A stretch of DNA of 64,000 nt from Massalongia carnosa (lineage: Eukaryota). This document shows, one piece after another, positions 14,381 through 51,017 of this stretch (positions are counted from its first letter, which is position 1; every line of letters begins with the position of its first letter). The stretch lies in assembly GCA_965645245.1 (NCBI GenBank), contig OZ287082.1, positions 62,001 through 126,000 of the forward strand. The letters are read 5' to 3'. A model generated the notes under the pieces. It saw only the letters and a program-made list of their open reading frames with translations. It had not been told where the DNA came from and made no database searches. The translations under genes and the position numbers were made by a program.

Positions 14381-14384
14381 ATAG

Positions 14385-14630: not shown

Positions 14631-14709
14631 CCACGCGGGTGACAAAATAAAATTTACACCAAAATTTTCACCCCACCAGACTTTTCATCCACCATCATAT
14701 TAAATAATC

Positions 14710-22292: not shown

Positions 22293-22810
22293 GATTGTGG
22301 AATATGAGGGGGGACAGGGGCTAGTGCTATGAAAGACACCTTTCGATGTAGGTCCGACGTAATGTCAAGGATTGGGCAGGGGATTGAACTAATGTTCCTA
22401 GGAATTGGATTGGGTGATCAAGATGTCTTTATTAATAAGGCTATAGCTAGGTGATGAATTGCTATACAAGACGTCGGACAAGGAGTCAACTATCTAATTA
22501 ACTTGTCCTTCCTTTTATATTTGTCTCGAACCCCTTTGCATGAAGATTGGATCAGTATTCATCTCCCCCTATTAGGAGACGTACGGCACGAAGGTTTGAC
22601 GAGGTGTTTGACGATAAAAGGTGGAGATGAGGTTCTCCTGTCGTTGGTACGCTTTAATGGTGATGGTACAGCTTTGACCTGAAGCCGTTGAGAGGGGTCT
22701 AAACTCGATTTAGTTAATGAGATTCTGACTAAGCTGAATAGAGGAACGGGAGCTTAGTCAGATTCATCTGCGGGATTGATTCTGGACCGGGTTGGTTCGA
22801 TTTCATGACA

Positions 22811-23335
22811 CGAAGACCTGACGTGGTATGATGCTGACGGCTTCGAAAATGCAGAAGAACTGGTGAAGGACTTTTATCGACGACACCCTAACAAACAACG
22901 TTAAACCGCATTTATAACTCAATCTATCACGTGATGAAACGAACGGAGGTAAAGCGGACTTTATCGCGGTCAGGTGACTCGCGATCTAAAGCGGAGGGTA
23001 GTGTCACGATTCCACCTTTCGCCTTTAGGAGCTAAACCTAATCGAGCACCTACGGGTCGGATAACGAGATTCACGAGATAGCGCGGAAAACTCTTTCGCG
23101 ACCGTACTGCATGAGGGCAAGGGAACGCGTTGGTATATAGGGACGGGTCAGACCTTCGAGTCTTTCTTTTCTCTTCAGCTTTATTGTTTTCGTTCATGGC
23201 GTCCCTATGACTAGCCTCTAGGTAGACCGTAACATGTAGCTCCAATAAACCTGCGGTACGGTAGGTAGGGAGAGGAAAGAGGGGGCAACTACGGATAAGG
23301 CCGAGATCCTTTTGGTTCGAAGCCGTTTTATGACA
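22811..23335 (+). mobile_element. 3' end of a second Gypsy element: chromodomain tail, PPT, LTR 23002-23335
   Basis: EDLTWYDADGFENAEELVKDFYRRHPNK*; aaagcggagggtag precedes TGTCAC...ATGACA. Confidence 0.82.
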
Positions 23336-23966
23336 GATGTTATGTTTGTAGAATATATTTATTTTTACTGTATTAATAATAGTTTAATATTCTACAATCG
23401 TTAAAAATTGATTTCCGATTTCGAAGCAAGAAATATAAAATTATTCTCGGATTCATACTAGAAATTATTGAACGATAATCTGCTTTAATTCTGAGAACCA
23501 AGTCTTATTTTTAAGCAGAATAATGCATCGATTTAATTTACTAAAAAAATTGAAAAATAATTCGATAAAACCGATAGAACCATTATCGATTGATTTTCTT
23601 CTGATTAAAATCTCATCTAGCACGTTTGAGATTGGCATAAAGAACTCATTTATCAGATTAATCCGAAAAATGAATCGATATGATGATAAAACTCGAAAAA
23701 TACTTTGATAAACATTTAAAAAAAGCAAAAGCTTGACACAAAAGAAAGAGTTGAAAAAATTTTAGTAAAAAGCATAAAAAAAATTGAAAATTGCATTCAA
23801 TCGAAAGAGTAATATACGAGATTTTAATAAAAATTTCAATAAAAATTTCATGTTAAAATTTATATAATAATCGCACCAAGTTTCAAGATCTCATAATAAA
23901 AACCCGATCATTAATAATTCAAAGCAGTAATAAGAATCAAAAGCTGATGAAAAAGTTGTGGGAATC

Positions 23967-24481
23967 TGTAAGAGTCAGACCTGGCGATTATCAGACACCA
24001 GGCCTAGGGATATGTGACAATGTGAAGACACTAATGATTTGCTATACTAATATACTAAAAGAAGTATATAGGTAAAGCGGAAGACTAATCGTTGAAGATT
24101 GCATCTCCCTCGAGCAGCCTCCTTATATACCCGGACCGAAGCCCTTGACCCTCTGGGCCCTTGATACTGTAACTATCTTGACCGCCCATTACTCCTACCG
24201 GATAAGCCGGCTTAACACTCTGCTGACTGCATCGTGGACACTGTGCTGACTGTATCGTAGACACTGTGCTGACTGTATCGTGGACACTGTGCTGTCTGTA
24301 TCGTACTATTCGCTCACTAATCGTACGAGCATCCTCGTATATCTCGATCGCTCGTACTATACTCTCGGCAGTAGATACCAGCCGCGTAACGCAGACCAAC
24401 TGCTTTCCATATGACTAAGCCTAGCCGTAGAACTAAGCCCCGCTTAGTTAGCTTAGCCCTTATTCCTTCTATGCCCTGACA
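23967..24481. mobile_element. Solo LTR with an internal ~23-bp tandem repeat
   Basis: TGTAAG...CTGACA, TSD GAATC; acactgtgctgactgtatcgt repeated at ~24215-24305. Confidence 0.88.
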
Positions 24482-24604
24482 GAATCTTTTGACCTGGTGC
24501 TTTATATATAGATAGATAGGTGAAAAAAATATCTTTTAAACTTTATTTATAATTATTTTTTAACTTCAATACTATCGTTACGACTTAAAGCGATTAATTA
24601 GTTG

Positions 24605-26193
24605 TGTTGAATATCCAACTCCTATCAGTACAATGAACATACAATCTAGGAAACCGTAGAAGCCGCATTAGGCCTAGTCCCAAGATAAGATAAAGATCAC
24701 CTCACTTAACAAAAGATGACCAGTAATAGGATAAAGACTGCTGAACAGCACTCTTTATCCTTAACATCACGGTTATACATATACTTATTATTACATAGTT
24801 ATATAGCTATAGTGTAATAAACTACGAGGCCAGTAAGCTTATCACGAGCGACACTGATCTTGAAAGGGGAAATGCTCAGCGTGAGAGGTGGAAGGTAGCT
24901 ACTACGTGCTGGTCTCCGAGAGTATATATGATCCAAAGAACTAATGGATGTGGAAGTGCTCAGACCAAGAGATCTCGTCCGAGACCCAAACGTAGGTTGT
25001 TCATAGAATAAAGACTAATTGCTAACGAATACTACAGGATTCGTTCTGGTATTTATCCTACTCACCCCAAGCCTATAGCCTTGGGAGCCTTGGAACCTTA
25101 GGAGCCTTGCAACCCACTTTCTGACCTTATGGCCTTACATCCAACCATCCCTCAGGATCCATCTACGAACTCGGCGTTCGCTGGGTCATCTAGTCAGCCT
25201 CGAGCAGCCTTCTAGATCTTCCCTTGCAAGGTAGAACACTTCTACCTCCGGCTAGATCCCTCACTACATTGCTAGCCTGCCTCTAAACATAAATTCTAGA
25301 CGCCGAGGCTATGTAGCTTCATTTCGCCGTCACCACTACCAACCTAGCGATGGAAGGTTACCTCCGACTGAATCTCTATCTACACTGCCGACCGGCCTCT
25401 AGACACAAGGTCTAGACCACAAGTTCATGTAGGTTCATTCAGCCGACATCACTACCAACGTAGTGTGATAGGGTGAATAGGGACAAGGGCAGGTGCTGAG
25501 GGGAGGGGGGGAATTGGTATAGACGGAGCGGAGGGGAGGTTTTTCCGGGGCTGAGGCGCCCATTTTTCTATAGATAGGGTAAGTTTCACCCTCTAGACAG
25601 CCAGGCAATCAACATTTTTCTTTCCTTCAGAGTCAGTATTCGTGTCCGAGTGACAGTGTCAGAGTTGCCGAGTCGTCACCGCCAACGTTCTGTTTGTTGT
25701 TTTCACGTGTGTTCCTTGTTTGCTTTCTGCCGGTCTTCTCTCCTTGAGGTCATCACGTATGCACCACCCACGACTACCCCTCTTCAGTAGCAATAAAGGT
25801 GGAAGCTGAAGTTTACACCGGGGAGGCCGAGCTCAAGCTGTGTCCAGCTAGCCGTGCCTCCTGCTACAACTCTTGATCTATCAAGAGATCGAGTAGCTCC
25901 GAGTAGGCCAGTAGATTCCATATAGAGTTCACGGCTAGTCTCCACAGGAGTTCGCCTTACTCCATGGCAATCTACCACCACGGCCTCGACAGGTGTTTGA
26001 TCTGTAAGCAGTCTAGAACGTAGTAACAACTAATTCGGAGTTGTGTGGCAAGGTGGCGTCGTGTCAACCTCGACGGCTATGCGACTAAGTACTACGGCCT
26101 GGCTCATGCTAGTTAATCCCGCAACCGCCGTAGGCGATCACGTATCCCTCTAGCGCCATCCGCATTACACATAGTCATATACCTATTTCAATA
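24605..26193 (+). mobile_element. Nested solo LTRs: Copia-type LTR containing LTR-A (24813-26169), which contains LTR-C (25464-25786)
   Basis: TSDs AGTTG/TGTTG, TATAG/CATAG and GTAG/GTAG; the outer LTR resembles 39908-40143. Confidence 0.85.
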
Positions 26194-30909: not shown

Positions 30910-33900
30910 GATGAACTGCTGAGCAATGTTGACTGTTGATGTTAGCCTGTGTTAGCCTGTGTTAGCCTGTTTTAGCCTAACAAGATTGGGTCAGGCGACT
31001 GCGATTAGTTACCCAATTAGGCTAGCTTGAATTTTAGGAGTTCAGGTAAAATCTCTGCAGATAGTAAACAAATGAACTATCCCTTCCAAATATTCGTATC
31101 ATGCACCAAGGTGATCAATTCTCCCTCCAATATTGACAGAAGAGGCCTATTTGACGCGAGGACTGCATGGGAAGTGAAAGGCTGTTGAACGTATGTACTC
31201 GTAATACCGAGTTCGGCAGCACTTTGCGATCGTGTCAGACTTGCATACATCGTAGATAAGGTCGGATAAACTCTCATTACGGCTGACGAATTCCAAAAAG
31301 ACAATTTGAGATGTATTAGATTAACATTAAGCGTGAAAGACTTTACATATATTGAAGAATCTTGAATATGTCACACTTCTTACCAAGGCTGTGGAAGTTT
31401 GTTAACCAAAATGGATCGATGAGCAGAGAAGTCGGGACTTGATCTTTTATCACTTTTTTTATTTTTTATATGATTTAAATTCTTCGGCGGATACTAGACT
31501 GAAGAGGATTGAATAGACGGCATACTGCAAAAGAGCTTGAAATAGTTTTAAATCAACGTTTACTGAAAACTATTTGACCGAATGTACACCCAGAACCTCG
31601 TTTTCTGGATTCAAATGCTTTGCAGTAGGATGCATCCGATCCCAACATCATACTTTCTGACCAGTGTTTGCGCGATAGACTGTGAGTTCAAGATGATCAA
31701 AACCGTTCCTGAACTCTTCTTCCATGCAGATATTATCGATGTCATGATCACTAACTACCGCCCCTCTGTCGCCGGATGCTCCTCCATGATTTGTCACTAG
31801 AATGTCCGAGATGCTCTTGGCGTAAAGCACCATGGTATTGTCGTCAGTCAGTGGATTCCTTGATGTCGAAGGCCTTGCGTCGCCACTGATAATCCCGCGG
31901 TTGGAAATAGGCCCCAGTTCGCCGGATGCTTCGTCCAGCGTCCTTTCGCAAATGTCCTCGCGTCATCGAGAAGCCTTCACTCAAGGTGCCCGCTACGTAG
32001 TGAGAATTGCACGAGAAGACTCGGGACAGTCCCCCCCCCATCCCCCCAGCGAAAATCATTGCAAATTTACAAGCCACCTCCCCATACTAAATATGTGCAC
32101 GTCCACCGTCTCTCCGCAAGCTTCCTCTAGCTGATTTAGCTTAGCCTTGCATTCTGAAAAATCTGTTAAAACGGCAATCGATGCAAAGTACCGAAACCAG
32201 CTGACAAAGCAATTTGCATCTACCTCGTCAAGGAAAGGCTTGTGGCGGTGGCAAATTTGTATGAAGTCAGAAATCGCATCGGAAGCGGGAACCGATGAGA
32301 TGGAAATGGAAGCTTCTGGAATCGCTGGTGGACGGGCATAATTAGGAGCAGTTTTACCCTACGTAGTGGTAGAAAGTCAATCGTTTCTCCCAGTTTGTTT
32401 TGCATGTGCAAGAACTCGTTTGTCGAACTAGTCATATCAATTGCCCAGTGCTACCATTCCGCCTGTTGCAGTCACAGTTCCAACAAAATTCTCATCTATT
32501 CATACTACTACTATTACTACTACTCCTACCACTCATTGCGATGATCTCAATTCCGAAAATGCATCACTCAATTGCGAAACATTATCCTTTCTAGGCTTCA
32601 TAGTCTTAGTAACCTTTCTTGCAGCTGCGTTTTTCCTCTCCTCAGCCCTTGCTTGTTTGGCCGCTTGGTCGGCCCTCTGCTGAGACTCCAACTCCAACTG
32701 AGCCTTCAATTTTTTTGGCTACCACACTCCGTGACCCTCGTGTTGTTGTTGCAGACGATGTGGATGGTGTCTGGCTAGCGCGGATGTTTTTCTGACTTAG
32801 GCTATAAAGGGAAGGAGCTTTTGAAGAGGGAATTGTTTGGGAAAGAGCCTTTTGGCTATGTTTCGCCAGCACGTCATCAATATCTTCAAATGAATCGGAA
32901 GAAGATGCCGAGGATGGAGGGATAAAATCATATTCTCACTCAGAGGGAGTGGAGGATCGGGGGTAGGCTGAGTTGCTATATATTGCAGGTCATCGTCGTC
33001 AAATACGATGATAGCATCTCCGGAATCTATACCGAATATTAGCCGCGCTGCATCGATCGATTTGCTAATATCATGGGTTTTTTAACATTAATCATATCCT
33101 TGTCTTCATCACCTGCCCGCAATTCATCCTCATGCCTTCCTCTCCTTACTTCTTCAATCGAGTCCTTACGTTTAGCACGTCGCTGCTTAGCTTCATCTGC
33201 CTCAGCTGCCTCACGGCCAGTGTAAGCCCGCCGGCGACTCCCACTCTTTTTATACATGAGGTTGTCCTTCGGTCGGATTTCGTCGGAGAAAGTTGTAGGG
33301 ATAAGTGGCCTCCCCAGCTCCTTATCCTGCCATTTTTTATTGAAAATAGCAGTGAATTTGGCGAATTCACGAGCGTATCCCTCCCTTCTATGCACATTTT
33401 CTATTGATTTATGGAAATCAATAGATTGATGTGCGGCCGCATGCAGCAAATAAACACCCCCGCGACGTAATCTATCCTCAGTATTATTGTCAACTGCCTT
33501 CTCGATCTCCTCTTCCGGCCCAGATTCTTGTCTTTGTTGAGCATTCTCCCCCTCATCCGCCTCCTCATCCTGCTCTTCTGTGGTCTTCCTGTGAGCTGCT
33601 CTCCGAAACATCTCAGCGAAACTTATGGTGGGGTCGAAAACCATTCTTCACGAGATCACAAAAGGCGGGCAATCGAAAAATCAGCGGGGATTAATTAGGG
33701 AGAAAGGTATGGGGATAACATCAATGACGCAATGATACAACTAGCATCTGCACGGAATATCGTATCGTGGAGGCAAATCAAAATCATACAATCCTCATCG
33801 GTTGGTACCAGCATTGCCTAGCCGATAGATTAGATAAGATCAGATCTAATCTAATCGCATAGAGGCTCGGATAAACTATTATCATCTCGCTTAGCAGAGG

Positions 33901-34460
33901 TGACCAATATAAAGGGAACAGATTGCTCTGCACTCCGTAGCAACTCTGCATCCTTAACATCATGGTCATACAGGCCCCTATCTTTACATAGTCATATAGC
34001 CATAGTCATAGACCTATTCAACAGGTTATGAGCCCGGAAGGGCGCTATCGATCATACAGGAATCGAAGCAATTCTTATCCGCAGCATCACGATGCAAAAT
34101 CATTAGCTGAGCATCATTATCCTTTCTCGAAAAGAACTAGACGGACAATGCAAAGACTAAATCTCTACTTGTTTACAGACCTGAATCAGGCGGGATTCGC
34201 ACCCGCAAGTCTAGCTAGTTGAACAGCTTCGTGAAAGCACATCATGACAACCTCTCAATCAAATAGAGACGTTTAACAACAACGCCACCTGATCCAGCGT
34301 TCCCTACCTACAAAGGGTTATCAGAAAGAGCATGGAAATCGTCTACATCATAAGCAGAGAGGCTCTTTGCCAGACTACAAGCATCAGAAGACATTCTCTT
34401 CATCAGACCATCAGAATGCTCTCATGCCCGAATATCTGAGAGGCACTCCGGAGGATGACG

Positions 34461-35160
34461 TTGACCCAGAGGCAGACTCCAGTGGACCAATTCCATTGTT
34501 TGACCTCTGCTGCATCACCATCCATTTGACTTTTGACCCAGAGGCAGACTCCAGTGGACTAGCTCCAAGGTTTGACCTCTGCTGCATCATCACTCATTTG
34601 ACATTGACCCAGAGACAGACTCCAGTGGACCAGTTCCAATGAGTGACCTCTGCTGCATCATCATTCATTTGACTTTGACCCAGAGACAGAACTCTAGTGG
34701 ACCAGTTCCAACGATTGACCTCTGCTGCATCATCATTCATTTGACTTTGACCCAGAGACAGAACTCCAGTGGACTAGTTCCAACGATTGACCTCTGCTGC
34801 ATCATCATTCATTTGACTTTGACCCAGGAACAGACCTTTTCACTGAGGTTTGTTCAAAAACCGCGCAGCGCGGCCTTGACCACTTATGAAACTCTGATTT
34901 CTGCTGAATCATCAATTGACTGACGTTGACCCAAAGGCAGACTTCATTCTGACTTTTGCTGCATCACCACTCAACTTACTTTGACCCAGAGACCGACCAT
35001 CTAAACTATCTTTCAGGGTCCGATTTCTGCTGAATCATCAAATGACTGACGTTGACCCAAGGGCAGACTTCATTCTGACTTTTGCTGCATCACCACTCAA
35101 CATACTTTGATCCAGAGACAGACTTAGGAAATTCAGTTCCAAGGTTTGATCCTTGCTGCA
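34461..35160 (+). repeat. 71-72-bp tandem array (5 full units plus variants) in the Copia 5' leader
   Basis: ttgacccag starts at 34461, 34533, 34604, 34675, 34747, 34819; derived units follow. Confidence 0.92.
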
Positions 35161-35606
35161 TCATTCATTAACAGACTTTCTGACTAGTCTACGCGTATAC
35201 AGATGGAGTAATCAGACTTCAATTAAGCAGAACGCCTCAATCGAGAAATTCAATCCGGAAAAAACCTTATTCCATTTAACAGGCCCGGCCTATTAAATGG
35301 AACGGTCGGACCGTGGTTCCGACAGCCCCCTATCTCCATACCACCAAGTGAAAGTTTCACCATCTGAAGAGAGTTCTTTCATGAGGGTACAAGCGTTGTG
35401 GCAAAGAAAGGAACATCACAGTTTGATGACAAAGGAAGGGAAATGTTTTGTCTATAACTAGATCACATATTCCCATCTCCTCCATTCATTCCAGTGCACA
35501 TCCTACTCCTGCACCAATCTCAGAAACTTAGATACCTTTCAATCTACAGAAGTTTACTAGAGACCTCTTCTTCATCTTCATCTGACTCTCTTCATCTGAC
35601 TTCATC

Positions 35607-38600
35607 ATGTCTCTTCCTGAAATCAACAGTTCCACAGAAAAGCCTCACCTTCTAGAGAACTCGGAACACTACTCAGCATGGGCTAGTTACACCAGAGGTA
35701 TTCTGCTGAAGAATAACTGTGACACAGCCATTCTGGAAACCCAACCAGAGATCTCATTGGACTCCATCAGAGAGAGCCTCATCGTATCAGGGTTTACTCC
35801 GGCCAGTCTTACTACCAGCATCCTCGTCAAAGAACTTCGGGATGATAAGAACAGACAGAAAACCGAGATGACCAAGGCTATTGGAATCATCCATGGACTG
35901 GTTGCACCATGTCACTACAACCTCATCAATAACAAGACCGCTGCCGAGATGTGGGCCATTCTGAAGAATAGGTTCCAGGACGTGGCACCAATGAGCATCA
36001 CGGATGTCATCTTGAGGGTTAGTACGAAAAATATGAGAGACTTCGACACAGTCAGTCAATACTGTTCAGAGTATGACGGTGCCTTCAATCAGATCAAGGG
36101 CATGTTGATCGAAGAGGTCACGGTGAACGTCGACTCCATAGAGTTTGTACTTCAGGGAATGCTGCTGGGTAACTGCACAGACAAGTATGACCCGCTCATT
36201 GCACAACTCCGCAGGGACTAGACGCACGACACCACAAACCTTTCGGAAACAACAAAAATCCTCATAGCCTATGCACGAAACCTAACTGTCAAGGCTTTTC
36301 ACACTGGCGCTTGCAACAGAGGTAGAGCACCTATCGGAAGTTGCACCGTTCCAGAGTGTGTAAATAGGAACAGAACACGACATTGGCCAGATGATTGTTT
36401 CCAGAAATTCCCCCATCTAAAACGGGCGAGAGGAGACACGGCTGAATCAGGGAGGGTCAGGAGACAAAAGAACTCCAATCCAGAAGTCACCACGTCAACT
36501 CCAGACACCACAGTCACTACAACTCCCACAGTGAGCAGTTGACTCACAGTGGTCATGACTACCACTCTACAGAAGGTCATGACCATCAACCATCTCAACA
36601 GAGACACCTGGCTACTAGACAGCGCAGCGGACATGCACGTATGCAATCACAGGCCGTCGTTCATCAACTACATAACACGCTCCACAGGTCTGGCAGGATC
36701 TACATCAGATGGCACGTCTCCAGGGAGGGGAATGATCCGGAAAACGTTGGCACTACAGGACGACTCACCCTCGTCAGTGTTAATACTGAACAACGTTCTT
36801 TTCATTCCACAGTGTCCAGTGAACCTCGTCCGTCTGGCACTACTCAACCAAAACAACATCTACTATGACAATGTTAACTGGACCCTATTCAACGGGATTA
36901 GTCAGAACATCATAGGCTATGTGCCAAGAGTCAATACAAACTTTGTACTAAAGACCATGGACGCCCCAGACGTGGCTACACATCTTATGCAGACAGATGA
37001 GGGCACCTTTCAGTGGCCGAACACATCAGTCTACCACACGTCAGCCATAACAGACCTGTCAACATGGCATGCGCGTCTTGGTCATTTAAACCTGATCACC
37101 TGCCGAGCTTTTCTGAAAAGACTCGATGTGTCGTACTCAGACAACGTGAACAAAGATTGGTACTGTTCATCCTGTGAACTCGGAAAGGCCACTAAGATAT
37201 ACAACCGGACACCTCAGGAGAGAGCAACAGGCATCTTTCAAAGGGTTCATTCCGATCTAGTAGGACCCATCAAACCAGCAGGACTTCTTGAAGAACAGTA
37301 CTTCCTTACCTTCACCTGCGATGCCAGCAGATACACTCATGTGTATACAGGCATCAAGAAGAGCGAATGGTTTGATCATCTGTTGACATACTACAGTCTA
37401 GCTCAGAACAAGACAGGAAAGAGCAAGCCAATAAACATCTTTCGAACTGATTTCGGCACAGAACTTCGAAGTCTGAAATCGGATGATTGGTTCTTGAAAG
37501 AAGGGATAACGTTTGAACCCTCCGCACCGTATTCACAGGAACAAAACGGTGTGTCTGAACGAACAGGCAGAACTATCATGGACATGACTAGATGTACCAT
37601 CATTGCAGGAGGCATTCCGGACTACCTATGGACAGAGGTGGTTTTAGCTATGGTTAACACAAAAAACGTCAGACCTACAAATGCTTTATCCGGAAAGACC
37701 CCATTTGAAATTTACGAGTCAAAGTCACCTCCTCTGAATCATCTGCGAGTGTTGGGATCAACCGTGTATATCCTCATTCATGAGGAAGAACGCAAAGGCG
37801 CCAACAGCAAATCGGCCAATTTCTACCTCGGGCCCAACGCGGAGTCTTGTGTGGGTACGATGGATGCACGATCTATCGAGTCTTTCTGAAAAAGGACTAC
37901 AGGGTCATCAGGGTCAAAGATCTGCGCATTCACGAAGATGCCATCTCCAAAGACCAGACCAACGTTCCTACATACGAAGCCATCATGACTCCCGATATAG
38001 TCACTCCATCAAAATCAACAGTCATTTCATCCCCCACAACGATTCCAAAACGTGGACGTGGCAGACCCAGAAAGCATGCTCAGATAGAACACGCATTGTA
38101 TCTTCTATCAGACACAGCTTTAGATGAACTCAATCATACTCCTACATACTCCTACATAGACACAGAGGATCCACTCGTTCTTCTTGCCAGAACCTTGGAA
38201 AAAGGAAGGATCATCAGGATTGGAAGACTATGACGCACTGTCTCAACTCGACATAGCTGAACCTCAGACATACCATCAAGCTATGAAAGGTCCACATTCA
38301 GAAAGCTGGAGTCGTTCCATGGACAATGAACACAACAGTCTTCTCGAGAACGAAACATGGACTCTTGTCAGAACCGAAGATATGGAGCCCAATCATACTG
38401 CTCTCAGTGGAAAATGGGTATACAAACTGAAACGAGACGTCAATGGAAATATCACACGGTACAAATCCAGATGGGTGGTGAAAGGCTATCTCCAGCAGTA
38501 CGGAGTAGATTTCGAACAGACCTATGCCTCCGTAGTGAAACCAATGGCCTTCCGATTATTGTTTGCCATAGCAGCTCATCATGACTTGGACATCGAACAG

Positions 38601-39845
38601 CTTGATGTCGTCACAGCATTCTTGTATGGGGTAATAGATCAACTGATTTACGTCCAAATGCCCAAAGGATATGAAAAAGCGGGCATGATCTGCAAACTGA
38701 ACAAGGCTCTCTATGGCCTGAAACAATCTCCACGCCTATGGTATGAAAGGCTATCCGAATTTCTACTTACCAAGCTGGGTCTGTCCAAACTTCACGCAGA
38801 TCATAGTATCTTCTCTTCTTCGGCAGGAATAAGAGGTCCAATTGTTACCTCCTTCGTTGATGATCTGAACATCATAGATCCAAAGGGATCTCCAATGATA
38901 TCTGAAGTCAAGAAACAACTGAACATTGCGTTCAAGATGGTGGACATGGGCTCAATCAGTCATTATCTAGGCCTAAAGGTAGAACGAAATCGCGATAACA
39001 GAACAATCAAACTATCTCAATCTACCTACATCGAAAAGGTCCTGGAGAAGTTTCATATGCAGAACGTGAAAACTACCACCACCCCAATGAAAGAAGGCAG
39101 TCTATTCAGAAATGAATCCCAGGCCTCAGAATCAGACATTAAACAGTATCAAGCAATCGTCGGCTCCATCATGTTTGCTATGATAGAAACAAGGCCTGAC
39201 ATTGCCTACGCGACCTCAGCGGTCAGCCGACATGCCAAAAATCCTGGCAAATCACACATGGAGGCAGCCAAGCAGATTCTCAGATATCTCAGTGCAACCA
39301 GAAACAGAGGCATTACCTTTGGTGGCGGAGATTTTTCTATACAGGGCTATTCCGATTCTGATTGGGCCGGTGACAAGGAAGACCGCAAGTCCACCTCCGG
39401 ATACGTCTTCATGCTGAACAATGGACCGATCAGTTGGGCCTCAAAAAGACAGAAAACCGTTGCCCTCTCATCCACAGAAGCCGAATATATGGCACTCACC
39501 TTAGCTGCTAAGGAGACCATATGGATACGCTTATTGATGACAGAACTCGGCCTGATGCAGGATGATGCTACTCCGACAGTGAATGTACTTGAAAGGGAAG
39601 GCGCTATAGCATTGAAAGGTGATAATCAGAGTGCTATAGCACTGGCCAATAATCCCGTCTTACATTCAAGGACTAAGCACATCGACATTCAGCATCACTT
39701 CATACGGAATGAGGTCACAGAGGGTCGAATAGACCTTACCTATGTTTCAACAGAACACATGGTAGCGGACGGACTGACCAAACCGCTTACCCACGTCAAA
39801 TTCTTCTCCTTCATCAGACAACTTCACATGAATTCATCTAGTTGA
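35607..39845 (+). pseudogene. Copia gag-pol; in-frame stops at 36219 and 36540, frameshifts near 37820 and 38200
   Basis: WLLDSAADMH, WHARLGH, FRTDFGTE, EQNGVSER, YKSRWVVKG, FVDDL, YSDSDWAG, ADGLTKPL. Confidence 0.93.
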
Positions 39846-41564
39846 GTTCATACCCCGCAGCGCGGTTTTGATCATCAGAACAAGTACTGGCAGAACTTGA
39901 GGGAGGGTGTTGAATGTTCAACTTCTACCAGCATTGCCTAGCCGATAGATTAGATAAGATCAGATCTAATCTAATCCCATAGAGGCTCGGATAAACTATT
40001 ATCATCTCGCTTAGCAGAGGTGACCAATATAAAGGGAACAGATTGCTCTGCACTCCGTAGCAACTCTGCATCCTTAACATCATAGTAATACAGGCCCCTA
40101 TCTTTACATAGTCATATAGCCATAGTCATAGACCTATTCAAAAGTTGGTTCGATTAATGCAGTCCATTCGACTTCAAAAGAAAATTCTTGATTGAAATCT
40201 TCGGCTAAAAGTTTAGCTGCATATAACTCTCTAGATATGAGGTCAATAGCATGATGAGTTATTAAACCTATAAGGTCTTTGAACGCACTTTTATTTATTA
40301 GCCGGGGGCTGTTGATTCGTTATGATATTTCGTAATCAATCTGAACCCTTTGCACTGTTTCGCATATTTTCCGCACCGAGTCTTTAATAGATGTATGCCT
40401 ATTTGTCACATTTTTTACCAATGGATGCAAACCTTTCACCCTTTATGTGCTCTGTGCATCTAAATTAGAACTTTTTGGTTTATGCGGAAACAAACTGATA
40501 ATTTGCCTAGGTATACAACGTTCTCAGCTAGAGGAAGAGATAGTAAATGCACTTAATTATTTAGTATGGGAGGTGGCTTGTAGCTAGTCCTAATTTGGAA
40601 TGGTTTTCGCTGGGGGGACGGTAGGGGGACTGTCCCGTGTCTTCTCGAGAATTGCATAGTGAGGGAAAATAAATAGACCAATGCTTTTAATCACCGCTCT
40701 CTTTCGTCGTGGGGGTTTAATTAAACTTACTTCGAGAAGTAGATATCGAATTCATAACACCTTTCAACCTGTTATCAAAGACATCAATGTCAAGAAAATA
40801 ACTGCAAAGCGGAACGTGAAGTATCCAAAGCCTCTCTATGAAACAAAATTGAAAAGCAAATAGTCATGGAAGCTTGTTCCGAAAGGGTATAGAATTATGA
40901 CGCCAAAATATGTAAACTGTCAGTCAGAAGAGCAAAGATTGCTTCGACAGCTACGGGTAGAACTGTACTTAATAACAGGCAGGAACTTCAAAAGTGTAAG
41001 AATGAAGATAACAACGGGATATATAACGGTAGAATCATTCAAGACCAGTTTCAGAGACATTCTTGAAGCCGTTCCTTAGATATAGGTATTACATCAATAC
41101 TGAGCGGTTGATTTGATCCGTCTATACAAACGAAAATATACCTCTGAGCTTGTCACGCACGTGACGGAGCCGCGAAAAAGAATTTCAACGGCCAGTCTTA
41201 GACTTAATCCCGCGCGAATAAATAGTTCTAATGACGTACGTAACATTCAAACAAGTCCTGACTTACCGTTTCAAATCACAATCGAGGCGTCCAGAACAAG
41301 CAGAATTATTATAACGAATTCAAACATGCATTACAATATCCCAATCAATGTTTGTAGTGGGTGGAAGAGTTCAAGGATTGAATTCAAGCGGGATATATCG
41401 CCAATACAGAAAAGAAAATGTGACTAAATATGCGACGAATACACAAGTGAGGATATTTAAGGGGATTCTCGATGATACTATCTCCTTAAGAAGAAAGCAG
41501 ACGCTGATAGTATGCTGATAAGAGTGCAGGAGATAAGAGCTTGCAAGGCGAGTAAGGAAAACGC

Positions 41565-41914
41565 TATAGTGGGGTGGAGCGGTGATACTCTAAATTCAAA
41601 TTGCTAGCGGTTCGGGAGTTGGTTCTTTTCGGCTGATACTCGGTAAAGGTAGCGGGGAAGTCAGGTGACAGTCTTTCTTTTAGCTTAGTTATAGATAGTT
41701 CTTTTCCTTTTGGAGCAAGCATGCTCGTAGCAATAGCTACAACACATAGCATCAACACATACAGTTCACAGGCACGAGGCACGAGGCACGAGGCATACAG
41801 AGACCAGTCTAGCTATTGTCCTTATTCTATTGTTCTGTTCTTCTCTTGTTTGTTTGTTCTCTTGCACTCCTAGCAGTAGTGGACCACGCATACCATCCAG
41901 TTCATCCTTCCACA
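41565..41914 (-). mobile_element. Solo LTR family E
   Basis: Reverse complement of 15358-15713; 4-bp TSD ACGC. Confidence 0.9.
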
Positions 41915-42248
41915 ACGCGAGGTGAAGTAGATAGGTTTTACGGGTAATCAAGGTAGCAAGATCAAGAATTTCTTGCAGAGACTACGCATTAATGTAATAT
42001 AATAATTTGCCTTCTTATTATAAGTTTAAATAGAAAAGAGCTTGAATACTAAAGACGGGTATTTACAACGATGCTGATAAATTATCAATGTAACTTTTTA
42101 AAAAAGTGAGAATACTGGCTGCAGAGAAAGAGAGACTGCATTGTACAAACTAATTGATCGAACAATCGAAAAAATACCTGTGTGATTCTTATTCTGCGAA
42201 AAAAATGAGAAGATTCTACAAAGAGACCGCGATGAAGTTTATGTAACG

Positions 42249-42652
42249 TGTAACGGTTCGACCATGCGTGGTGGGGATGGCAGGACCGATAGCGAACATA
42301 GCAAGAGTCCCAGTTATAGTAGAATAGAGCTTGGTCTTCGGACTAAGTATTGTGCCTTTTGGTCGGGAAGGAAAGGTAGCGCAATGGTAGAAATCTATTC
42401 ACTATCTCGCTTCGTCACAGAATACTTAGTCATCAATCGGTGTACTAGTTGTTAGTTCGATTCCTGACCTGAGTTCCTCGCTTTTTAGCCTTGCTTCGAC
42501 GGACTGAAGCTAGGACGAAACGGGAAAGCGTCGGATGAAATCTCTCTCAGTCGGATCGGCGAGGGCCGTATGCTAAGAAGAGCCTATTTATCGGGGCTAA
42601 CTATAACTGGAAGCGGCTAGGGGCTAGCCGCAGCTAGACGGGCGGTGGTATA
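42249..42652 (+). mobile_element. TRIM-like mini LTR element copy 1 (LTR plus internal region; second LTR lost)
   Basis: Matches 44301-44700. Confidence 0.85.
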
Positions 42653-42769
42653 CTATGATCCCCGAGGGGTTTTTGTTAGCGCGGTACAAACAGCGGGAAA
42701 AACACGCTAATATTTCTACTAACGAGCTCAGCGCATCAGCATCAGCATTATTTTTAATCATCGTCAACT

Positions 42770-43844
42770 ATGGAGCCTGCTACTCCTAAAAAATAATGTG
42801 ATTTATCTAGAGATTAACGTCTTTAAGCTTTTATTTTGCGCGATATAGGATGGAGTTATGCATAAATTGCTGAGCATTTACAAATCACAATTCGTCAGGT
42901 CTAGTATGCATGCACCGTTGGTCGATTTACTCCACAAAAGAAATTTCGATGCGGACCTAAATCTTTAATTGATAACGCTTCTCGACAAATATTGATTGAA
43001 TTCGTTTGCGCTTCGTCAGAAAATAGCCGTATACCTTACTGTCAAATTGCCTGGAAACTCGGATGGAATGTTTCAGAGAATACTATACGAAAACCTCTTA
43101 AACATGAGGGTTTTTCTAGAAGACTAGCACGTCGAAAGCCTACCATTTCCTTAATTAATCGTGTTAAACGTCTTGAATGGGCTCGAGAGCATTTGAGTTG
43201 GAGCAAAGAGCAGTGGGAATCTATATTATGGAGTAATAAAACATGGGTAAATAGCACCCGCCATGGACGTATTTGGGTAACGAGACGAGCAGGTGAAAAA
43301 CTGCATCTAACCTGTGTCATTCCTCGTCTTCCGAGCAAGGGAGTATGGATGTTTTGGGGGTGTTTTTCAGCCAACAAAAAGGGACCTTGTTTATTTTAGG
43401 AAAAGGACAGGGGCAGCATTAATCAACAGTCATATTGTGAGCATATTATGCATTTCATTGAAGGCTGGATGAAGCTCAATCACGGACTTCATTTTATGCA
43501 AGACAATGCTTATTATAATCTACCTAGAGAAAAGTTATAGGGATACTAGAAACGACTACAATAAAGATAAAGAAGGAAAAAGACAATTGACAACCCGAAC
43601 CTGCTCTATATATCTACTATTGCTCTAGTACCCATGTAGTATTAGCGCGGTAGAATCTTCTAGTGACTGCAGGAACAAAAATCGAAGATGCGGGAAGCGT
43701 TCCATCTAATGTTTGCCCTAGGCGGTGCCGAGTTTATCCGAGTACCGAGGTCGAGCCGATTAGAATCGTGACAATGCTTCTAGTCATGCAGCTCGATTAT
43801 CTCGAGAGGAGTTTGAATATCGACGAATTTCATTCATTTAATTG
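42770..43844 (+). pseudogene. Tc1/mariner transposase with RIP-like stops, interrupted by a solo LTR
   Basis: ARRKP...RLEWAREH..WSKEQWESILWS, MFWGCF, GPCLF*EKD, MQDNA|SSHAA. Confidence 0.88.
43511..43773. mobile_element. Solo LTR inside the Tc1 QDNA motif
   Basis: TSD ATGCT; ends GTGACA; the transposase frame resumes after it. Confidence 0.82.
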
Positions 43845-44137
43845 TGTCATGGTGTGAACTGAACGCCTGAAGATTCATTGAACATCTATCTACGGTTTCC
43901 GTAGATGGACCATTAAGGTTTATCTCAGTTTCACGGACAAGCTCGAGTGTTGTCTTTTCCGTGCTCCTACAGTCTAACCATATTGAGCTTAGGATGTCAT
44001 TCAGGAGACATAGGAAATCTCTGCAAGCAAGTAATGCTTTTCTCTTCGTGTTTGTCTTGTCTAGCTATCATGTAGCATACTTCGCAATAAAAGACTGTTT
44101 GTAACATAGATAGGACCTCTTCATACCGACCGTGACA
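43845..44137. mobile_element. Probable solo LTR
   Basis: TGTCATGG...CCGTGACA inverted termini; no TSD. Confidence 0.6.
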
Positions 44138-44300
44138 ACAACGATTTTTCGTGTCGTTGAATCTATCGCGATAGATTTTCTCTTTAAAAAATTAACCACG
44201 ATTAATCACTGTTTTTCTTAAATTAATGTTAATGTGATTATAATATTCAACGAGATTTTTTTATCTTCTTTTCGTAATTTTATAGTTTATTTATCGAATC

Positions 44301-44870
44301 TGTAACGGTTCGACCATTCGTGGTGCGGACGGCAGGACCTATAGCGAACATAGCAGGAGTCCCAGTTATAGTAGAATAGAGCTTAGTCTACGGACTAAGT
44401 ATTGTGCTTTTGGTCGGGAAGGACAGGTGGCGCAATGGTAGAAATCTATTCACTATCTCGCTTCGTCATAGAATACTTAGTCATCAGTCGGTGTACTAGT
44501 CGTTAGTTCGATTCCTGACCTGAGTTCCTCGCTTTTTCGCATTGCTTCGACGGACTGAAGCTAAGACGAAACGGGAAAGCGTTGGATGAAAACTCTCTAA
44601 GTCGGATCGGCGAGGGCCGTACGCTAAGAAGAGCCCATTCTTCGGGGCTAACTATAACTGGAAGCGGCTAGGGGCTAGCCGCTGCTAGACGGGCGGTAGT
44701 GTAACGGTTCGACTATGCGTAGTGCGGACGGCACGACCTACAGCGAACATAGCAGGAGTCCCAGTTATAGTAGAGTAGAGCTTGGTCTGCGGACTAAGTA
44801 TTGTGCCTTTTGGTCGGGAAGGAAAGGTGGCGCAATAGTAGAAATCTATTCACTATCTCGCTTCGTCACA
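44301..44870 (+). mobile_element. Complete TRIM-like non-autonomous LTR element (570 bp)
   Basis: LTRs 44301-44470 and 44700-44870, 229-bp non-coding interior, TSD GAATC. Confidence 0.95.
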
Positions 44871-45439
44871 GAATCGTCTATTTTCGACTCATCTTATGCT
44901 TGCAGATGTCGATGCCAGAATAATTATTTCTGTAAGTACGTCTTAGATTAATAAATTATACTGGATCTAACTAAGATCTTATTACGATATATCGAAGACG
45001 AATCGTAACAAATTCGTACACAACTTTAGCAAAGGTAATCGCTCTGAAATCTGTTTTTTATCTTTGTCAAAGTCTTCATTCTCCTATGAAGAAAAGATAA
45101 CTCCTTAGAATTTTACAGGTTTTTTCTTCTATTCTGAAATTATTGAATTCAACTTATATATTTTTATTCCAAAATTTCACCGAAAGTCGAACAAATATTA
45201 ATAAAATAATAGAATTCTACACAATATATGCAAATTTTTTTATTCATATAATGAAAATATTTATTGATGTAATGTAATAACGTCGTTTAAAATAAACAAG
45301 TTCATTACGTTCGACTTGAAAACCGAATAACAAATAAAACGAAGAGCGAAAACAAATTTACTATATATAAATAAATTAAATGGAATATCAGGTAGGGAGG
45401 AGAGAAGACTACATGAAGGTGTGTTCTATTGAGATCTGT

Positions 45440-47400
45440 TGTAATAGGCTACGAGACCAGTGAGCTATTCACAAGCGACACTAATTGTCAAGGGACTAGA
45501 TTGGATTGTCAAGCTTTCTAATTGACTGAGTCTATAGCTACAGCTAGGCTAGATTGACTATTCAAGACGTCGGACAAGGAGCCAGAACTTTCGAGACTCG
45601 ACCCCTTCTTTTATGTCTGTTCCTCACCTCCTTACCCCTTTGTTTCCTTGATCTTCGATGTCTCCTATTGTAAGACGTATGCTTCTACTCAGAGGGCGTG
45701 TTGGTCACGTGAAGGGGGTAACTCAATAATGTATGTTATTGATCTATGCCCTTAGAATAAGGTGGGCATCGACCTCTTTATCCTACAGACGTGTCTCCCC
45801 CTAAGACTCCCTTATCGGATAGCCCCCAGCTATCTGATTGGTCCAAATGGCTCCCGGCCCCTTTGGGCGGTTAGTGCCATCCGACATGGGTTTCCAGCCG
45901 TCCCCCTCGCCAGCCGTCCCCCCTCGACGGCATGTGGCCGACAGCGGAATCAGCCCATTAGGGTCGGGCCGGGTTCGGCGGCCGAGTCCATGCTGATGCC
46001 CCTTTTCCGTATCCTTCTCCGTAGTCTCTATGGCAGGTCCTGACACCTATTCATCTCCTTTTCCTAAGTTAATACGAAGACACCTAATGGGGACCGGGTA
46101 ATTATGGTTTCGAAGATCGGAGGCGGAGCCGTACTCGATCTAACCGCATCGAGAAAGGTTGGAACAGCGCGCACTGACCAATGAAGCTGTGGTAGGTCTA
46201 ATGAACCTGCGGTAGGTCCAATGAACCCGCGGTAGGTCCAATAAACCAGCGGTAGTTCCAATGAACCTGCGATAGGTCCAATGAACCTGCCTTAGGTCCA
46301 ATGAACCCGCGGTAGCTCCAATGAACCTGCGGTACGGTAGGTAGGGACAGGATAGAGGGGGCAACTAGGGATAAGGCCGAGATCCTTTTAGTTCGAAGCC
46401 GTTTCATGACACTTATCTCGAAAGGGGAAATGCTCAGCGTGAGAGGTGGAAGATAGCTACTACATGCTAGTCTCCGAAAGTATACGTGATCCAAAGAACT
46501 AATGGATGTAGAAGTGCTTAGACCAAGAGATCTCGTCCGAGACCCAAACGTAGGTTGTTCATATAATAAAGACTAACTGCTAACGAATACTACAAGATTC
46601 GTTCTGATATTTATCCTACTCACCCCAAGCCTATAGCCTTGGGAGCCTTGGAACCTTTGGAGCCTTGCAAGCCTTGGGAGCCTTGCGAGCCTTACAGCCT
46701 TGCAATCCACAACCGACTTTATCGCATTATATCCAACCATCCCTCAGGATCCATCCACGAACTCGGCGTTCGCTGGATCATCTAGTCAGCCTCGAGTAGC
46801 CTTCTAGATCTTCCCTTGCAAGGTAGAACAATTCTACCCCCGGCTAGATCCCTCACTACATACCTCAGGCTATGTAGCTTCATTTCGCCGTCACCACTAC
46901 CTAGTGATGGAAGGTTACCTCCGACTGAGTACCTCGCTACACTGCGGACCTGCCTCTAGACACAAGGTCTAGATAACGAGGTCATGTAGGTTCATTCAGC
47001 CGACATCACTACCAACGTAGTAATAAAGGTTGAAGCTGAAGTTTATACCGGGGAGCCTAGCTCAAGCTGCGTCGAGCGAGCCGTACCTACTGCTACCTCT
47101 CTTGATCCATCAAGAGATCCAGTAGCTCCGAGTAGGCCAGTAGATCCCATATAGAGTTCCTTGGCGTCTCCACAGGAGTCTGCCTTACACTCCATGGCAA
47201 TCTACTACTACGGCCTCGACAGGTGTTTGATCTGTAAGTAGTCAAGAACGTGATAACAATAACTCCGAAGTTTCGGGGCAAGATAGCAGTGTGTCAGCCT
47301 CGACGGCTTATGCGACTTCGTACTACGGCATGGTCCACGCTAGTTAATCCCGCAACCGCCATAGGCGATCACGTATCCCTCTAGCGCTATCCGTATTACA
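45440..47400 (+). mobile_element. Nested solo LTRs: LTR-A containing a Gypsy-type LTR (45486-46411), which contains another LTR (45669-46045)
   Basis: TSDs TCTGT/TCTGT, CTAAT/CTTAT and CCTAT/CCTAT; all have TG...CA termini. Confidence 0.9.
46178..46335. repeat. 20-bp minisatellite, about 8 units
   Basis: ccaatgaacctgcggtaggt with period 20. Confidence 0.92.
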
Positions 47401-47577
47401 TCTGTCTACATGGCTATTACATACTGCTTAGCGCGCCAAGGCTCGCATGGCTGCGCTACTCCCGCAAAGGGGTTAGAGGATAATTTAACAAAATATATCA
47501 AAAATTTAATAAAATATATCAAAAGAAATGATATTCACAAAAAATATATCAGTTGTTAAAGTATCAATTCGAAACGT

Positions 47578-48272
47578 TATAGGGGGTGGAGTGGTGATTC
47601 TCAAAATTAAAATTGCTAGCGGTCCGGGAGTTGGTTCTTTTCGGCTGATACTTGGTAAAGGTAGCGGGAATTCAGGTGACAGTCTTTCTCTTAGTTATAG
47701 ATAGTTTTTTTCCTTTTAGATATAGAGCAAGCATGCTCGTAGCAATAGCTACAAAACATTGCTATTATTTATATTCTATTGTTCTCTTGCCATGCTAGCA
47801 GTAGTGGACTACGCACATCACCCAGTTTATCCTTCCGCTGTGACGAAGCGACATAGTGAGTAGATTTCTACCATTGCGCCACCTGTCCTTCCCGACCAAA
47901 AGGCACAATACTTAGTCCGTAGACCGAGCTCTATTCTACTATAATTGGGACTCCTACTATGTTCGCTGTAGGTCCTGCCGTCCGCACCACGCATGGTCGA
48001 ACCGTTACACTACCGCCCGCTTAGCTGCGGCTAGCCCCTAGCCGCTTCCAGTTATAGTTAGCCCCGAAGAATGGGCTCTTCTTAGCGTACGGCCCTCGCC
48101 GATCCGACTTAGAGAGTTTTCAACCAACGCTTTCCCGTTTCGTCCCAGCTTCAGTCCGTCGAAGCAAGGCGAAAAAGCGAGGAACTCAGGTCAGGAATCG
48201 AACTCGCGACTAGTACACTAATTAATGACTAAGTATTCTGTGAATTCACTTTTTCGCTTCGTCACATCCACA
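47578..48272 (-). mobile_element. LTR family E with nested TRIM copy 3 (47839-48266)
   Basis: Outer TSD ACGT/ACCT; inner TSD TCCGC/TCCAC. Confidence 0.85.
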
Positions 48273-48453
48273 ACCTTAAGAAAATACGTAAAAAAAACCA
48301 TCAAAAAAACATTATCGTCAATGAAATATTTGTTTTAATTCGTTTCAAAAAGTATAAAATATTAAACTTTATCAACGCAATAAAAATGAAAGAAGTAAGA
48401 AAATTTTCTTAAATAGAATAATATCAAAGATCTTATGAAGAAGTGATGGATTA

Positions 48454-51017
48454 ATCGTCGGCTCGCTTACCTCCGGGATCCGACTTGAAAAAATGTCGAC
48501 CGCATTTTTAGTCGGGGAAAGCGGTTGCATCCCGGAAAGCGGTTGCATCCCCTCAAATTCAAATTTCTTCATCTTTTTGATCATTGACCAACAACCACAT
48601 TGATTAAAAATCAGTCGCTACCGTACATAGCTTGAAAATCATCGCCGTCATCATCACCGTCGTCAAAATCATTTCCCTTGACCCCCCTGACCCCCTGACC
48701 CTCGTGATTCTCCGCTTACTCCGCATACCCCGCATACCACGCATTCTACCAATTATTCGCATCTCCTGGTTGAAAAGATGCTTCTAAATCGAATTCTTTC
48801 AATGATTCTTCCAAATCGAAAGATACGAAATCATCTCGTAGCCATGTTTCTCCTTCTAGAAGATCTGGAAGGATTGAATTATCTCCATGACCGGTGCTAT
48901 CTACGATAAACGTGACATCTTCCTTATTGACATTGTCACGCGGATTCTTTCTAATTTCCTTCTTCGCTTCCTCAGCTATCCATACCTCATTCGTGGCCTT
49001 CCATAATGCCTCGGGGTCAGGAATCTTCCCATACATCTCAATTTGAATGGGACCGAGCATTTTCTGCATTTCTTTCAGCTGTTTGACTCGATCTCTTTCT
49101 GTTTTTCGAGCAGCCAATCCCTTGACATGCATTTCATCTCTTTCTATTCGCCATAGCTTCATGAAGCTATTATTCGCTCGTTTCTCCTCAGCCTCTTGAT
49201 CCTGTTGTAGTCTGATGGCTATAGCCTGCTTTGCATCTTCCGCTGTAATTCCCAATCTTCCGGTTTCTGGTCTCAGACGTTTACGAGACATTCGTCTGTT
49301 ATTTAACTGACTTCTTCTTGATTCTCGATGCATTTCTAACTCCATGCCATCGATAATCATATTCGAAACAACTTCATTTGTATTGTCTACAAATGAGTCC
49401 CATTCCTCAGCCCGAGCGGGATCACTCCATTGCATGGATTTTCTGATTTCGGTCCCCATTGACTCAAACCATACTCAATGTCAGCTACTTTTGTCGGTTG
49501 GATTTGACGAGGTGGGGGTATAGGTAATGAGGGCTCATTATTCGTATTCAGACTGTTTAATGAATCATTGGGATCATTGGGATTGAAATTTTTCAGCTGA
49601 CGAATGCATGCCTTTGGATCAATCGGCCACATTCCCGACTTTTCAAATGCATACCGAATCGTAGAAGTCTTGAATGTAAGATTTCTGCTTTTGGTCAAGT
49701 CCTGTATAAATTGAGACAGAATACTCGACAAATGACGACGCAACGACTTCCTCAATAGCTTTGCAATGCCAATGCTTATAAGGCTGAAATACGCCCACAT
49801 CCAATGGTTGCATGCAATGAGTTAAATGCGGTATAAAGGGAAAGGGTCGGATGCGATTCTCATTGGCCAAAAGTGAAAATTCAGGGGTTGTATGACTGCC
49901 ATGATTATCAATCAGCAATAATTGCCATTCCGCATCAGGTCCTGCATTTGTATGATTGATAAGATGCTTCAAATATTTAAGTGCTATCTTATCAGATGTA
50001 AAATCACTGTTCGAGGGCACACCTTCCGAAAACCATGTGGCCATGATGTCATGACCCTGTACGATGATCATTGGAGGGGGGGATAGTCGCCGGCAGCATT
50101 GATAGTCTCAATAACTGTCGCAGATCTGCGATTTTCCGGGCTGACGGCGTAGAATTGTTTGATTTCCTCAGGAACAATGATTTCCTGACCCCTCATGCAT
50201 CCAACCCGAAAACCAGCTTCATCAAAGTTCAAAATGTTCCGACTTTTTCGAATTTTCAACTCTTTCAACACCTCTCTATATATTTCAAACCATTCCATCA
50301 CATCTGATTCTTGGGCAGCTTTATAACGAATCATTGCTAGTGGTTTTGTCTTTATTTTATGAAGTTTGTTACATTTCCACCAGCTCCGAAACCATCTTCT
50401 TGACGGGCCTACCTCGAGGGGGTTATAGGCCTTTTTCAGACTTACAATAGCCTTGAAAACCATCTGATGTGTAGGAAGAATTCCATGAATCAATAAGGAC
50501 TTAATAAAGCCTGTAATTGACCTTGCCTCATGCTCCCTCAGTATCTGATTTTGTCCTCCAATTTTCCTCCCTTCTCGTCGACGAATGGAAGACGTCAAAG
50601 TTTTAACGTTGATATTGTAGATTCTAGCTGCAGTCGTTTTACTTTCTTTGGGATGATTTGTCAGAATTTCCTTCGCCTTTTTCAATCTTTCCATGGGGTT
50701 GAGAGTGGAGACAAGGGAGGCGTCGTTATCCATGATTCGAAAGGGGAGATTGGTTCGGGGTATTGATTCGAAAGGAAAGGATTTGAATTGATAATCAGTT
50801 GGGTCGGAGAAATGATTTTCAAGCTATATACGGTATCGGCTGATTTTTAATCAATGTGGTTGTTGGTCAATGATCAAAAAGATGAAGAAATTTGAATTTG
50901 GGGGGATGCAACCGCTTTCCGGGATGCAACCGCTTTCCGGGATGCAACCGCTTTCCCCGACTAAAATGCGGTCGACATTTTTTCAAGTCGGATCCCGGAG
51001 GTAAGCGAGCCGACGAT
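48454..51017 (-). mobile_element. Full-length pogo/Fot1-like DNA transposon
   Basis: ~190-205-bp TIRs (48454-48641, 50812-51017), TA TSD. Confidence 0.95.
48746..50733 (-). pseudogene. pogo/Fot1 DDE transposase, frameshifted
   Basis: NFDEAGF, LIDNHGSH, THCMQPLDVGVF across four overlapping ORFs. Confidence 0.92.

Follow-up and report, generated by a model that had tools for sequence, protein, structure and literature searches.

The primer-binding site (PBS) of a TRIM is usually complementary to the 3' end of a tRNA and starts with TGG, and a primer site has to lie directly next to U5. Fungi are known to carry TRIMs, as excerpts of PMC10886601 record, and the same excerpts relate that Kojima asked whether LTR sequence primes Helenus and found no complementarity between LTR and PBS. 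Self-priming is known for autonomous elements of the Tf1/sushi group (excerpts of PMC7175516 and PMC4600332), and Tj1 is described as self-priming likewise (excerpt of PMC4600332).

The element at positions 44301-44870 of the window, by which we mean the whole 64-kb stretch of DNA analysed here, resembles both kinds. It has in common with TRIMs and fungal Helenus a length of less than 1 kb, short LTRs, a non-coding interior that holds only priming signals, and a multi-copy state. With fungal Helenus it also shares the 5-bp target-site duplication (TSD) and, in some hosts, an excess of LTR over interior, and with several TRIMs an LTR that is unlike the LTR of any autonomous element. It differs from Helenus and other TRIMs in that its putative PBS is complementary to its own LTR and not to a tRNA. 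Helenus and TRIMp3 differ further in that the LTR of the mini element contains no tRNA-like gene; a box-A-like motif stands alone there, and a box-B-like motif lies in the interior. As in Tf1 and Tf2 of S. pombe and Tj1 of S. japonicus, a stretch of the LTR is complementary to a site just past the LTR, a tRNA-type PBS is absent, and the predicted fold of R-U5 closes on the PBS; the complement has the same length, 11 nt, as that given for Tf1 in excerpts of its descriptions. Tf1, Tf2 and Tj1 are autonomous elements of ~5 kb that encode gag and pol, whereas the mini element codes for nothing and must borrow RNase H, reverse transcriptase (RT) and integrase. Without a Ty3/gypsy pol it may work like the Tf1-type group, but it is not a member of that autonomous clade.

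Retrozymes, too, are small LTR elements that code for nothing, and their LTRs do not resemble the LTRs of autonomous ones. They differ from the mini element in their hammerhead ribozyme, for which a search of the 570 bases against Rfam with E up to 10 returned no match; that search returned nothing else either. Readings of the locus as a retrozyme or hammerhead, a tRNA or a 5S derivative were set aside, there being no Rfam or ARAGORN match for any of them. We consider it probable that the 570-bp unit belongs to the non-autonomous LTR retroelements of TRIM type, uses Tf1-type self-priming and receives its enzymes in trans.

Table 1. Positions in the window of the parts of the mini element, its further copies and the neighbouring repeats
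Feature	Position	Strand	Basis or remark
Left TSD GAATC	44296-44300		Same letters as 44871-44875
5' LTR of copy 2, 170 bp, TG...(C>T)A	44301-44470	+	Sequence, self-BLAST, alignment
TATA-like TTATAG	44366-44371	+	22 nt before putative primer; promoter role putative
8-bp hairpin with UNCG-type loop (UACG)	44381-44400	+	3' arm is first 8 nt of putative primer
Putative self-primer and start of R, GACTAAGTATT	44393-44403 (LTR positions 93-103)	+	In 4/4 LTRs
Box-A-like TGGCGCAATGG in U5	44428-44438	+	6 sites in window, 3.3 expected, 3/6 in mini-element family
Interior of copy 2, non-coding, 229 bp	44471-44699	+	Self-BLAST, ORF list
Putative PBS AATACTTAGTC	44472-44482	+	In 3/3 interiors; one base (G 44471) past LTR
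Box-B-like GTTCGATTCC in interior	44506-44515	+	6 sites in window, 1.6 expected, 3/6 in mini-element family
T5 run	44533-44537	+	After box-B-like motif
3' LTR of copy 2, 171 bp, TG...CA	44700-44870	+	Self-BLAST, alignment
Right TSD GAATC	44871-44875		Same letters as 44296-44300
Copy 1: 5' LTR (42249-42419), full interior, first 4 nt of 3' LTR (as TATA), then broken	42249-42652	+	Alignments
Tc1/mariner-like remnant, at TA break of copy 1	42653-43500		ORF 42905-43399 HTH_Tnp_Tc3_2, E 2e-13
Left duplication of copy 3, TCCGC	47834-47838		4/5 match to TCCAC
Copy 3, 428-bp insertion	47839-48266	-	Mini-element part 48243-47839, without full 5' LTR
Right duplication of copy 3, TCCAC	48267-48271		Followed by AAC, as in F repeat
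Repeat family F, ~360 bp	41559-41918, 47572-47836, 15354-15717 (inverted)		Common end ..CCTTCCACAACGC
Near-intact chromovirus, element B	15868-22810	-	RT, RNase H, integrase, SH3_Tf2-1
LTR-like unit TGTTG...TGACA	~45438-46047		Highly repeated in X1

Sequence, self-BLAST and alignments define a 570-bp non-coding LTR unit (Table 1), here called copy 2, and its extent, the 5-bp duplication (GAATC) and the pair of ~170-bp LTRs (170 and 171 bp) given in the preliminary description were all confirmed. No open reading frame of at least 90 aa overlaps it. The two LTRs of copy 2 are 93.5% identical, and its interior is 94.3% identical to the other two interiors. TG...CA ends are found in three of the four mini-element LTRs, the 5' LTR of copy 2 having TG...TA. 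The three copies counted earlier stand as three interiors and four LTRs; copy 2 alone is complete. A sequence resembling a polypurine tract, AGACGGGCGGTAG (44687-44699, plus strand), abuts the 3' LTR, a position that suggests its function; it is interrupted, with purines at 10 of 13 positions, and as a candidate polypurine tract it is poor, which counts against the reading that we favour.

The hairpins that the preliminary description had named were located in the 229-bp interior. As a whole, the 229 nt fold no better than shuffled sequence (MFE -76.2, shuffles averaging -72.7, z -0.74; 45 of 200 shuffles did equally well), and a structured interior is not supported. The further suggestion that it forms a minimal packaging signal found no support in a fold at z -0.74, and three copies with ~94% identity are too alike to reveal covariation; a role of the interior in packaging is a guess.

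Next to the 5' LTR, over 11 of 11 nt, AATACTTAGTC is the exact reverse complement of GACTAAGTATT inside the LTR. When each LTR was subjected to 5000 dinucleotide-preserving shuffles, a complement of at least 11 nt within 6 nt of the LTR end was reached once in 5000 for copy 2 and never in 5000 for copy 1, and the complementarity noted earlier, matched by no more than 1/5000 shuffles, lies beyond chance. In the copia element of the window, which served as a control, a complement of at least 6 nt between LTR and PBS is absent. The 11-mer has seven exact sites in the 64-kb window, all of which belong to the mini-element family (4/4 LTRs, with the complement in 3/3 interiors), and there is one site with a single mismatch, at 26083, where 0.9 sites with at most one mismatch are expected in the window. 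Both arms are therefore kept in all copies, as had been stated, and we estimate that unchanged arms at 7/7 sites are weakly informative at the observed divergence. In the predicted RNA fold of 44393-44490, an 11-bp helix closes R-U5 at -27.5 kcal/mol (z -2.83) in copy 2 and at -29.7 kcal/mol (z -3.59) in copy 1, z-scores that partly restate the complementarity and apply to a folded stretch whose start was chosen.

The primer site reads G followed by AATACTTAGTC, and TGG is absent. ARAGORN found no tRNA in the 64-kb window, and Rfam found nothing on 42000-48500 except two chance-level sRNA matches, in agreement with the earlier remark that the site is not tRNA-like. The gap that separates the LTR end from the complementary 11-mer is too short to hold another primer site. 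This lack of room, the missing TGG, the absence of tRNA and Rfam matches, the closing fold, the precedent of Tf1 and Tj1 and the upstream TTATAG are the grounds on which we chose Tf1-type self-priming. The TTATAG had been placed ~25 nt upstream of the LTR arm; the motif is present, at a spacing of 22 nt.

We posit that transcription would start inside the 5' LTR at or near 44393, ~22 nt after TTATAG, which would make this position the putative 5' end of the mini-element transcript. The leading 11 nt of the RNA would then loop back across 78 nt of R-U5 to base-pair with the 11 nt beginning one base past the LTR. RNase H of a helper would cut after nt 11, and the freed 3' end would prime minus-strand DNA. 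Protease, RT/RNase H and integrase would be supplied in trans by an autonomous self-priming Ty3/gypsy chromovirus, and integration would make the 5-bp duplication. The first 8 nt of the putative primer can also pair, across a four-base loop, with the 8 nt that precede them; where the RNA repeats this sequence in its 3' LTR, they could be held in such a UNCG hairpin of U3, which might prevent competition for the primer site.

This hairpin reaches -10 to -11.2 kcal/mol in three of the four LTRs (z -3.45 to -3.99), the remaining one giving -7.1. Its loops in the four LTRs are UUCG, UACG, UGCG and UACG, the second base being the sole loop column that varies. If transcription started at 44393, the hairpin would form in the 3' LTR copy of the RNA only and could mask the primer sequence there, whereas with a start further upstream it would compete with priming. 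The U3 hairpin also fits an upstream start, in which case the primer would not be the very end of the RNA.

Contigs of four public runs were aligned to 43000-46100 at a likeness of at least 85%; X1 to X3 represent one organism (A), X4 another, and X5 is labelled a lichen metagenome. The aligned contigs numbered 5317 in X1, 183 in X4, 428 in X5 and 1 in X6. Before 44301, homology stops exactly in 27 X1 contigs, whose flanks are unlike one another (agreement 0.38), and 10 contigs of X5 have unlike flanks at the same place (agreement 0.48). Behind 44468, 23 X1 contigs continue with CA and then unlike letters (agreement 0.46), as do 6 contigs of X4, and behind 44870, 12 X1 contigs run into unlike sequence (agreement 0.44). 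The flanks beyond the LTR edges are AT-rich. The mini element is a mobile family with many insertion sites, and its copies have the same interior in 3/3 cases. Among the 15 of 25 joints listed for the public contigs, there was no empty site for copy 2. In one X1 contig two LTR starts (44303/44702) meet head to head, perhaps as a related oddity, perhaps through misassembly, and 8 X1 contigs share a minor variant of the LTR whose difference lies immediately upstream of 44408.

The family is highly repeated in two organisms (that of X1-X3 and that of X4) and in the lichen metagenome X5, and the mini element is among the most repeated sequences of the runs that carry it. In X1, the summed word depth over the element is 0.43-1.1 million vs 723-996 in the nearest unique bins, a measure that does not equal copy number. 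The depth of the LTR exceeds that of the interior ~2.2-2.6-fold in X1, ~6-11-fold in X4 and 14-17-fold in X5. These ratios suggest that organism A holds mostly whole elements, and X4 and X5 many solo LTRs or LTRs with other interiors. Scans of JGI metagenomes with a 23-mer of the interior yielded 0 loci, and those with a 21-mer of the LTR two (L001 and L002), which match over the 21-mer alone and are put down to chance. Viral contigs gave 0 matches to the mini element.

The copies in the window are old, with no sign of present activity. The LTRs of copy 2 (93.5% identity) are no closer to each other than LTRs of different copies (92.4-94.7%). Comparison of the window with X1 contigs over 43000-46100 gave 25 A>G and 20 T>C vs 9 G>A and 8 C>T differences, so that the window has A or T for G or C of the contigs more often than the reverse, and this base bias together with the LTR divergence fits old copies with RIP-like decay.

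Copies 1 and 3 are both rearranged. In copy 1, insertion of a TA-targeting transposon at TG-TA-AC, with later loss of the distal part, would explain the break, and the HTH_Tnp_Tc3_2 frame of the Tc1/mariner-like remnant begins ~250 bp beyond it; inverted ends are absent from 42653-44300. The remnant (42653-43500) is moderately repeated in X1. A single L-I-L-I-L tandem of copies 1 and 2, split by the transposon, was rejected on account of the GAATC that flanks copy 2, the many contigs that end at 44301 and the missing inverted ends. Split repeats of the DIRS/Ngaro type and simple inversion models were also tried for copies 1 and 3, and neither reproduced the observed order of parts.

Read on the minus strand, copy 3 opens with 23 nt of U5 end in inverted orientation, followed by the terminal 5 nt of an LTR, the interior and a full 3' LTR. 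On the plus strand this becomes an inverted LTR, an inverted interior, TGTGA and 23 nt of the LTR 3' end in plus orientation, of which 21/23 match. The insertion interrupts an F repeat, while the other two F copies run uninterrupted to ..CCTTCCACAACGC; one F copy lies 330 bp upstream of copy 1. Given its own 5-bp duplication and the interrupted F repeat, copy 3 is a single integration of DNA with two U5 ends, probably an aberrant cDNA. Minus-strand synthesis may have extended to the PBS and through 5 nt of U5 before it jumped to the 5' end of minus-strand DNA, at a point 23 nt short of the tip, and ran off this template; integrase would have inserted the resulting cDNA, with its two U5 ends, with a normal 5-bp duplication. 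The mechanism is uncertain, since the switch point has no microhomology and the junction is a palindrome, GTGAATTCAC. If copy 3 did arise in this way, it is a rare genomic record of an integrated aberrant product of reverse transcription.

Three other explanations have to be weighed against self-priming in trans. The least improbable of them, though still unlikely, is a TRIM that is primed, in the manner of fungal copia-type elements and fungal Helenus, by the internal part or anticodon loop of a host tRNA, with the 11-mer in the LTR being incidental or serving another fold. Excerpts of PMC10886601 report that most fungal Helenus PBSs complement tRNA anticodon loops, that these elements are apparently mobilised by copia and that copia elements also make 5-bp duplications, and the window does contain a copia element. 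Against this stand the exact 11-nt complement one nucleotide past the LTR, reached by no more than 1/5000 shuffles, and the lack of TGG. Under general tRNA rules, moreover, no placement of the complement would give a canonical anticodon loop with U33, a purine at position 37 and a flanking stem. The excerpted finding that Helenus has no LTR-PBS complementarity (PMC10886601) bears on the same point: since it is absent there, TRIM structure does not in general bring such complementarity with it.

A small-RNA-derived, pol III-driven element similar to TRIMp3, with box A in U5, box B in the interior and a short RNA that ends at T5, appears even less likely. Box A, box B (78 nt on) and T5 follow each other in tRNA-gene order on one strand, and the motifs are kept in 3/4 LTRs and 3/3 interiors. 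They were sought with the general box A and box B consensus and noticed post hoc. The conserved core letters of that consensus agree with those in excerpts of PMC10886601, where Helenus has both boxes inside the LTR, whereas in the mini element they straddle the LTR edge. Neither a covariance model nor ARAGORN finds any resemblance to a tRNA, and a transcript that stopped at T5 would be no template for retrotransposition, since R, U3 and the polypurine tract would be missing from it. The box-like motifs and T5 raise the suspicion that another transcription unit overlaps this region, and it is possible that they are the relic of a small-RNA-derived ancestor and not a working promoter. Very improbable, finally, is a dead deletion derivative that was spread by duplication of DNA and is not a retrotransposing 570-bp family. 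All three copies lie within 6 kb, two of them rearranged; at alignment column 42 both 5' LTRs have T and both 3' LTRs have C; and the two LTRs within copy 2 have diverged as far as those of different copies, all of which would suit such a history. It is contradicted by the contigs with unlike flanks that end at the exact LTR edges in three runs, by an interior depth in X1 of about half the LTR depth, as expected for whole elements, and by the separate 5-bp duplications of copies 2 and 3 at different targets.

Tf1-type self-priming in trans calls for a helper, and the neighbourhood offers a candidate for the class. The window is a transposon-rich fungal stretch, with ORFs matching Pkinase_fungal, DUF7791/NPHP3_N, DUF6606 and dynamin and with transposon proteins of the copia, Ty3/gypsy and Tc1 types. 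In element B the gag-like frame (473 aa) and the pol frame (1496 aa) are both open, and the LTRs of ~445 bp are 98% identical; its Chromo match (E 8.2e-5, 22.9 bits) lies under the cut-off of 25.1, and the 5-bp flanks of its two LTRs mismatch. It carries a 9-nt complement of the self-priming type two bases past the 5' LTR (PBS 22352-22360, LTR 22471-22479, LTR position 332), which was reached by 32/5000 shuffles. The LTR stretch lies ~38 nt after TATAAAAG, and the RNA fold closes on the complement (z -2.99). Element B thus resembles the mini element in being part of the same genome, in its LTR/PBS complementarity, in the TGT...ACA ends of its LTRs and in a G-rich tract that ends in TA plus C/G before the 3' LTR. 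It differs in having no sequence beyond chance in common and a different primer motif, and there is no specific tie between the two.

When the LTR and interior of the mini element were compared with the ends of elements A and B, local alignments stayed within shuffles in 8/8 comparisons, and no autonomous element with the mini-element LTR, primer motif or interior was found within the 64-kb window. Of the self-priming chromovirus that had been proposed as helper, what stands is that one with such a PBS lies in the same window, 22 kb away; a link by common sequence does not. Element B may serve as an example of the helper class and is a candidate at most. The LTR-like unit at 45438-46047 and element B have in common a ~19-nt stretch around the 9-mer self-primer motif GTCCGACGT, and nothing else. 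The primer and start region seems to be conserved between LTR families that are otherwise unlike. As both element B and this repeated unit carry the same 9-mer, self-priming chromoviruses appear to be present and abundant in the genome.

Further repeats lie in the same window. A copia element (33806-40144) has 219-bp LTRs that are 98% identical and the duplication GTTGG, and the sequence behind its 5' LTR looks like what we take to be the complement of the anticodon arm of the initiator tRNA. Its leader contains five tandem 72-bp units (34456-34820), a weaker sixth at 35102 and a 126-bp pair (34893-35144). At 46158-46354 there is a 20-bp tandem array (CCAATGAACCTGCGGTAGGT-like, at least 7 copies), which adjoins a repeat that is also found at 23236-26190 and, inverted, at 11179-14632. 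The segment 48447-51024 is bounded by ~200-bp terminal inverted repeats, 89% alike, and holds several broken minus-strand frames with no Pfam match; it is probably a decayed DNA transposon. A ~295-bp tandem duplication at 1114-1636, with 228-nt cores that are 92% alike, lies over minus-strand frames and is not LTR-like.

A miniature non-coding element and self-priming are each known separately, and their combination was not found described in the literature searched: a published self-priming TRIM is missing among the matches listed in full-text literature, while a consensus in Repbase or Dfam may exist. We can go one step further and suggest, very tentatively and with the balance clearly against it, that the family lives as a specialised parasite of self-priming chromoviruses and, with a primer/PBS pair of its own, needs no host tRNA, that the UNCG hairpin masks the 3' copy of the primer and leaves the 5' copy alone to reach the PBS, and that copy 3 is a by-product of this chemistry. 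Annotation pipelines that seek tRNA-type PBSs will miss or misclassify families of this kind. The R-U5-PBS region of ~90 nt would provide a compact natural substrate for studying how the enzymes recognise such a structure. TRIMs are normally matched to their helper by a common type of tRNA primer or by sequence, and where both halves of the priming duplex lie in the TRIM itself, any helper with an RNase H and an RT that accept the self-primed structure could serve it.
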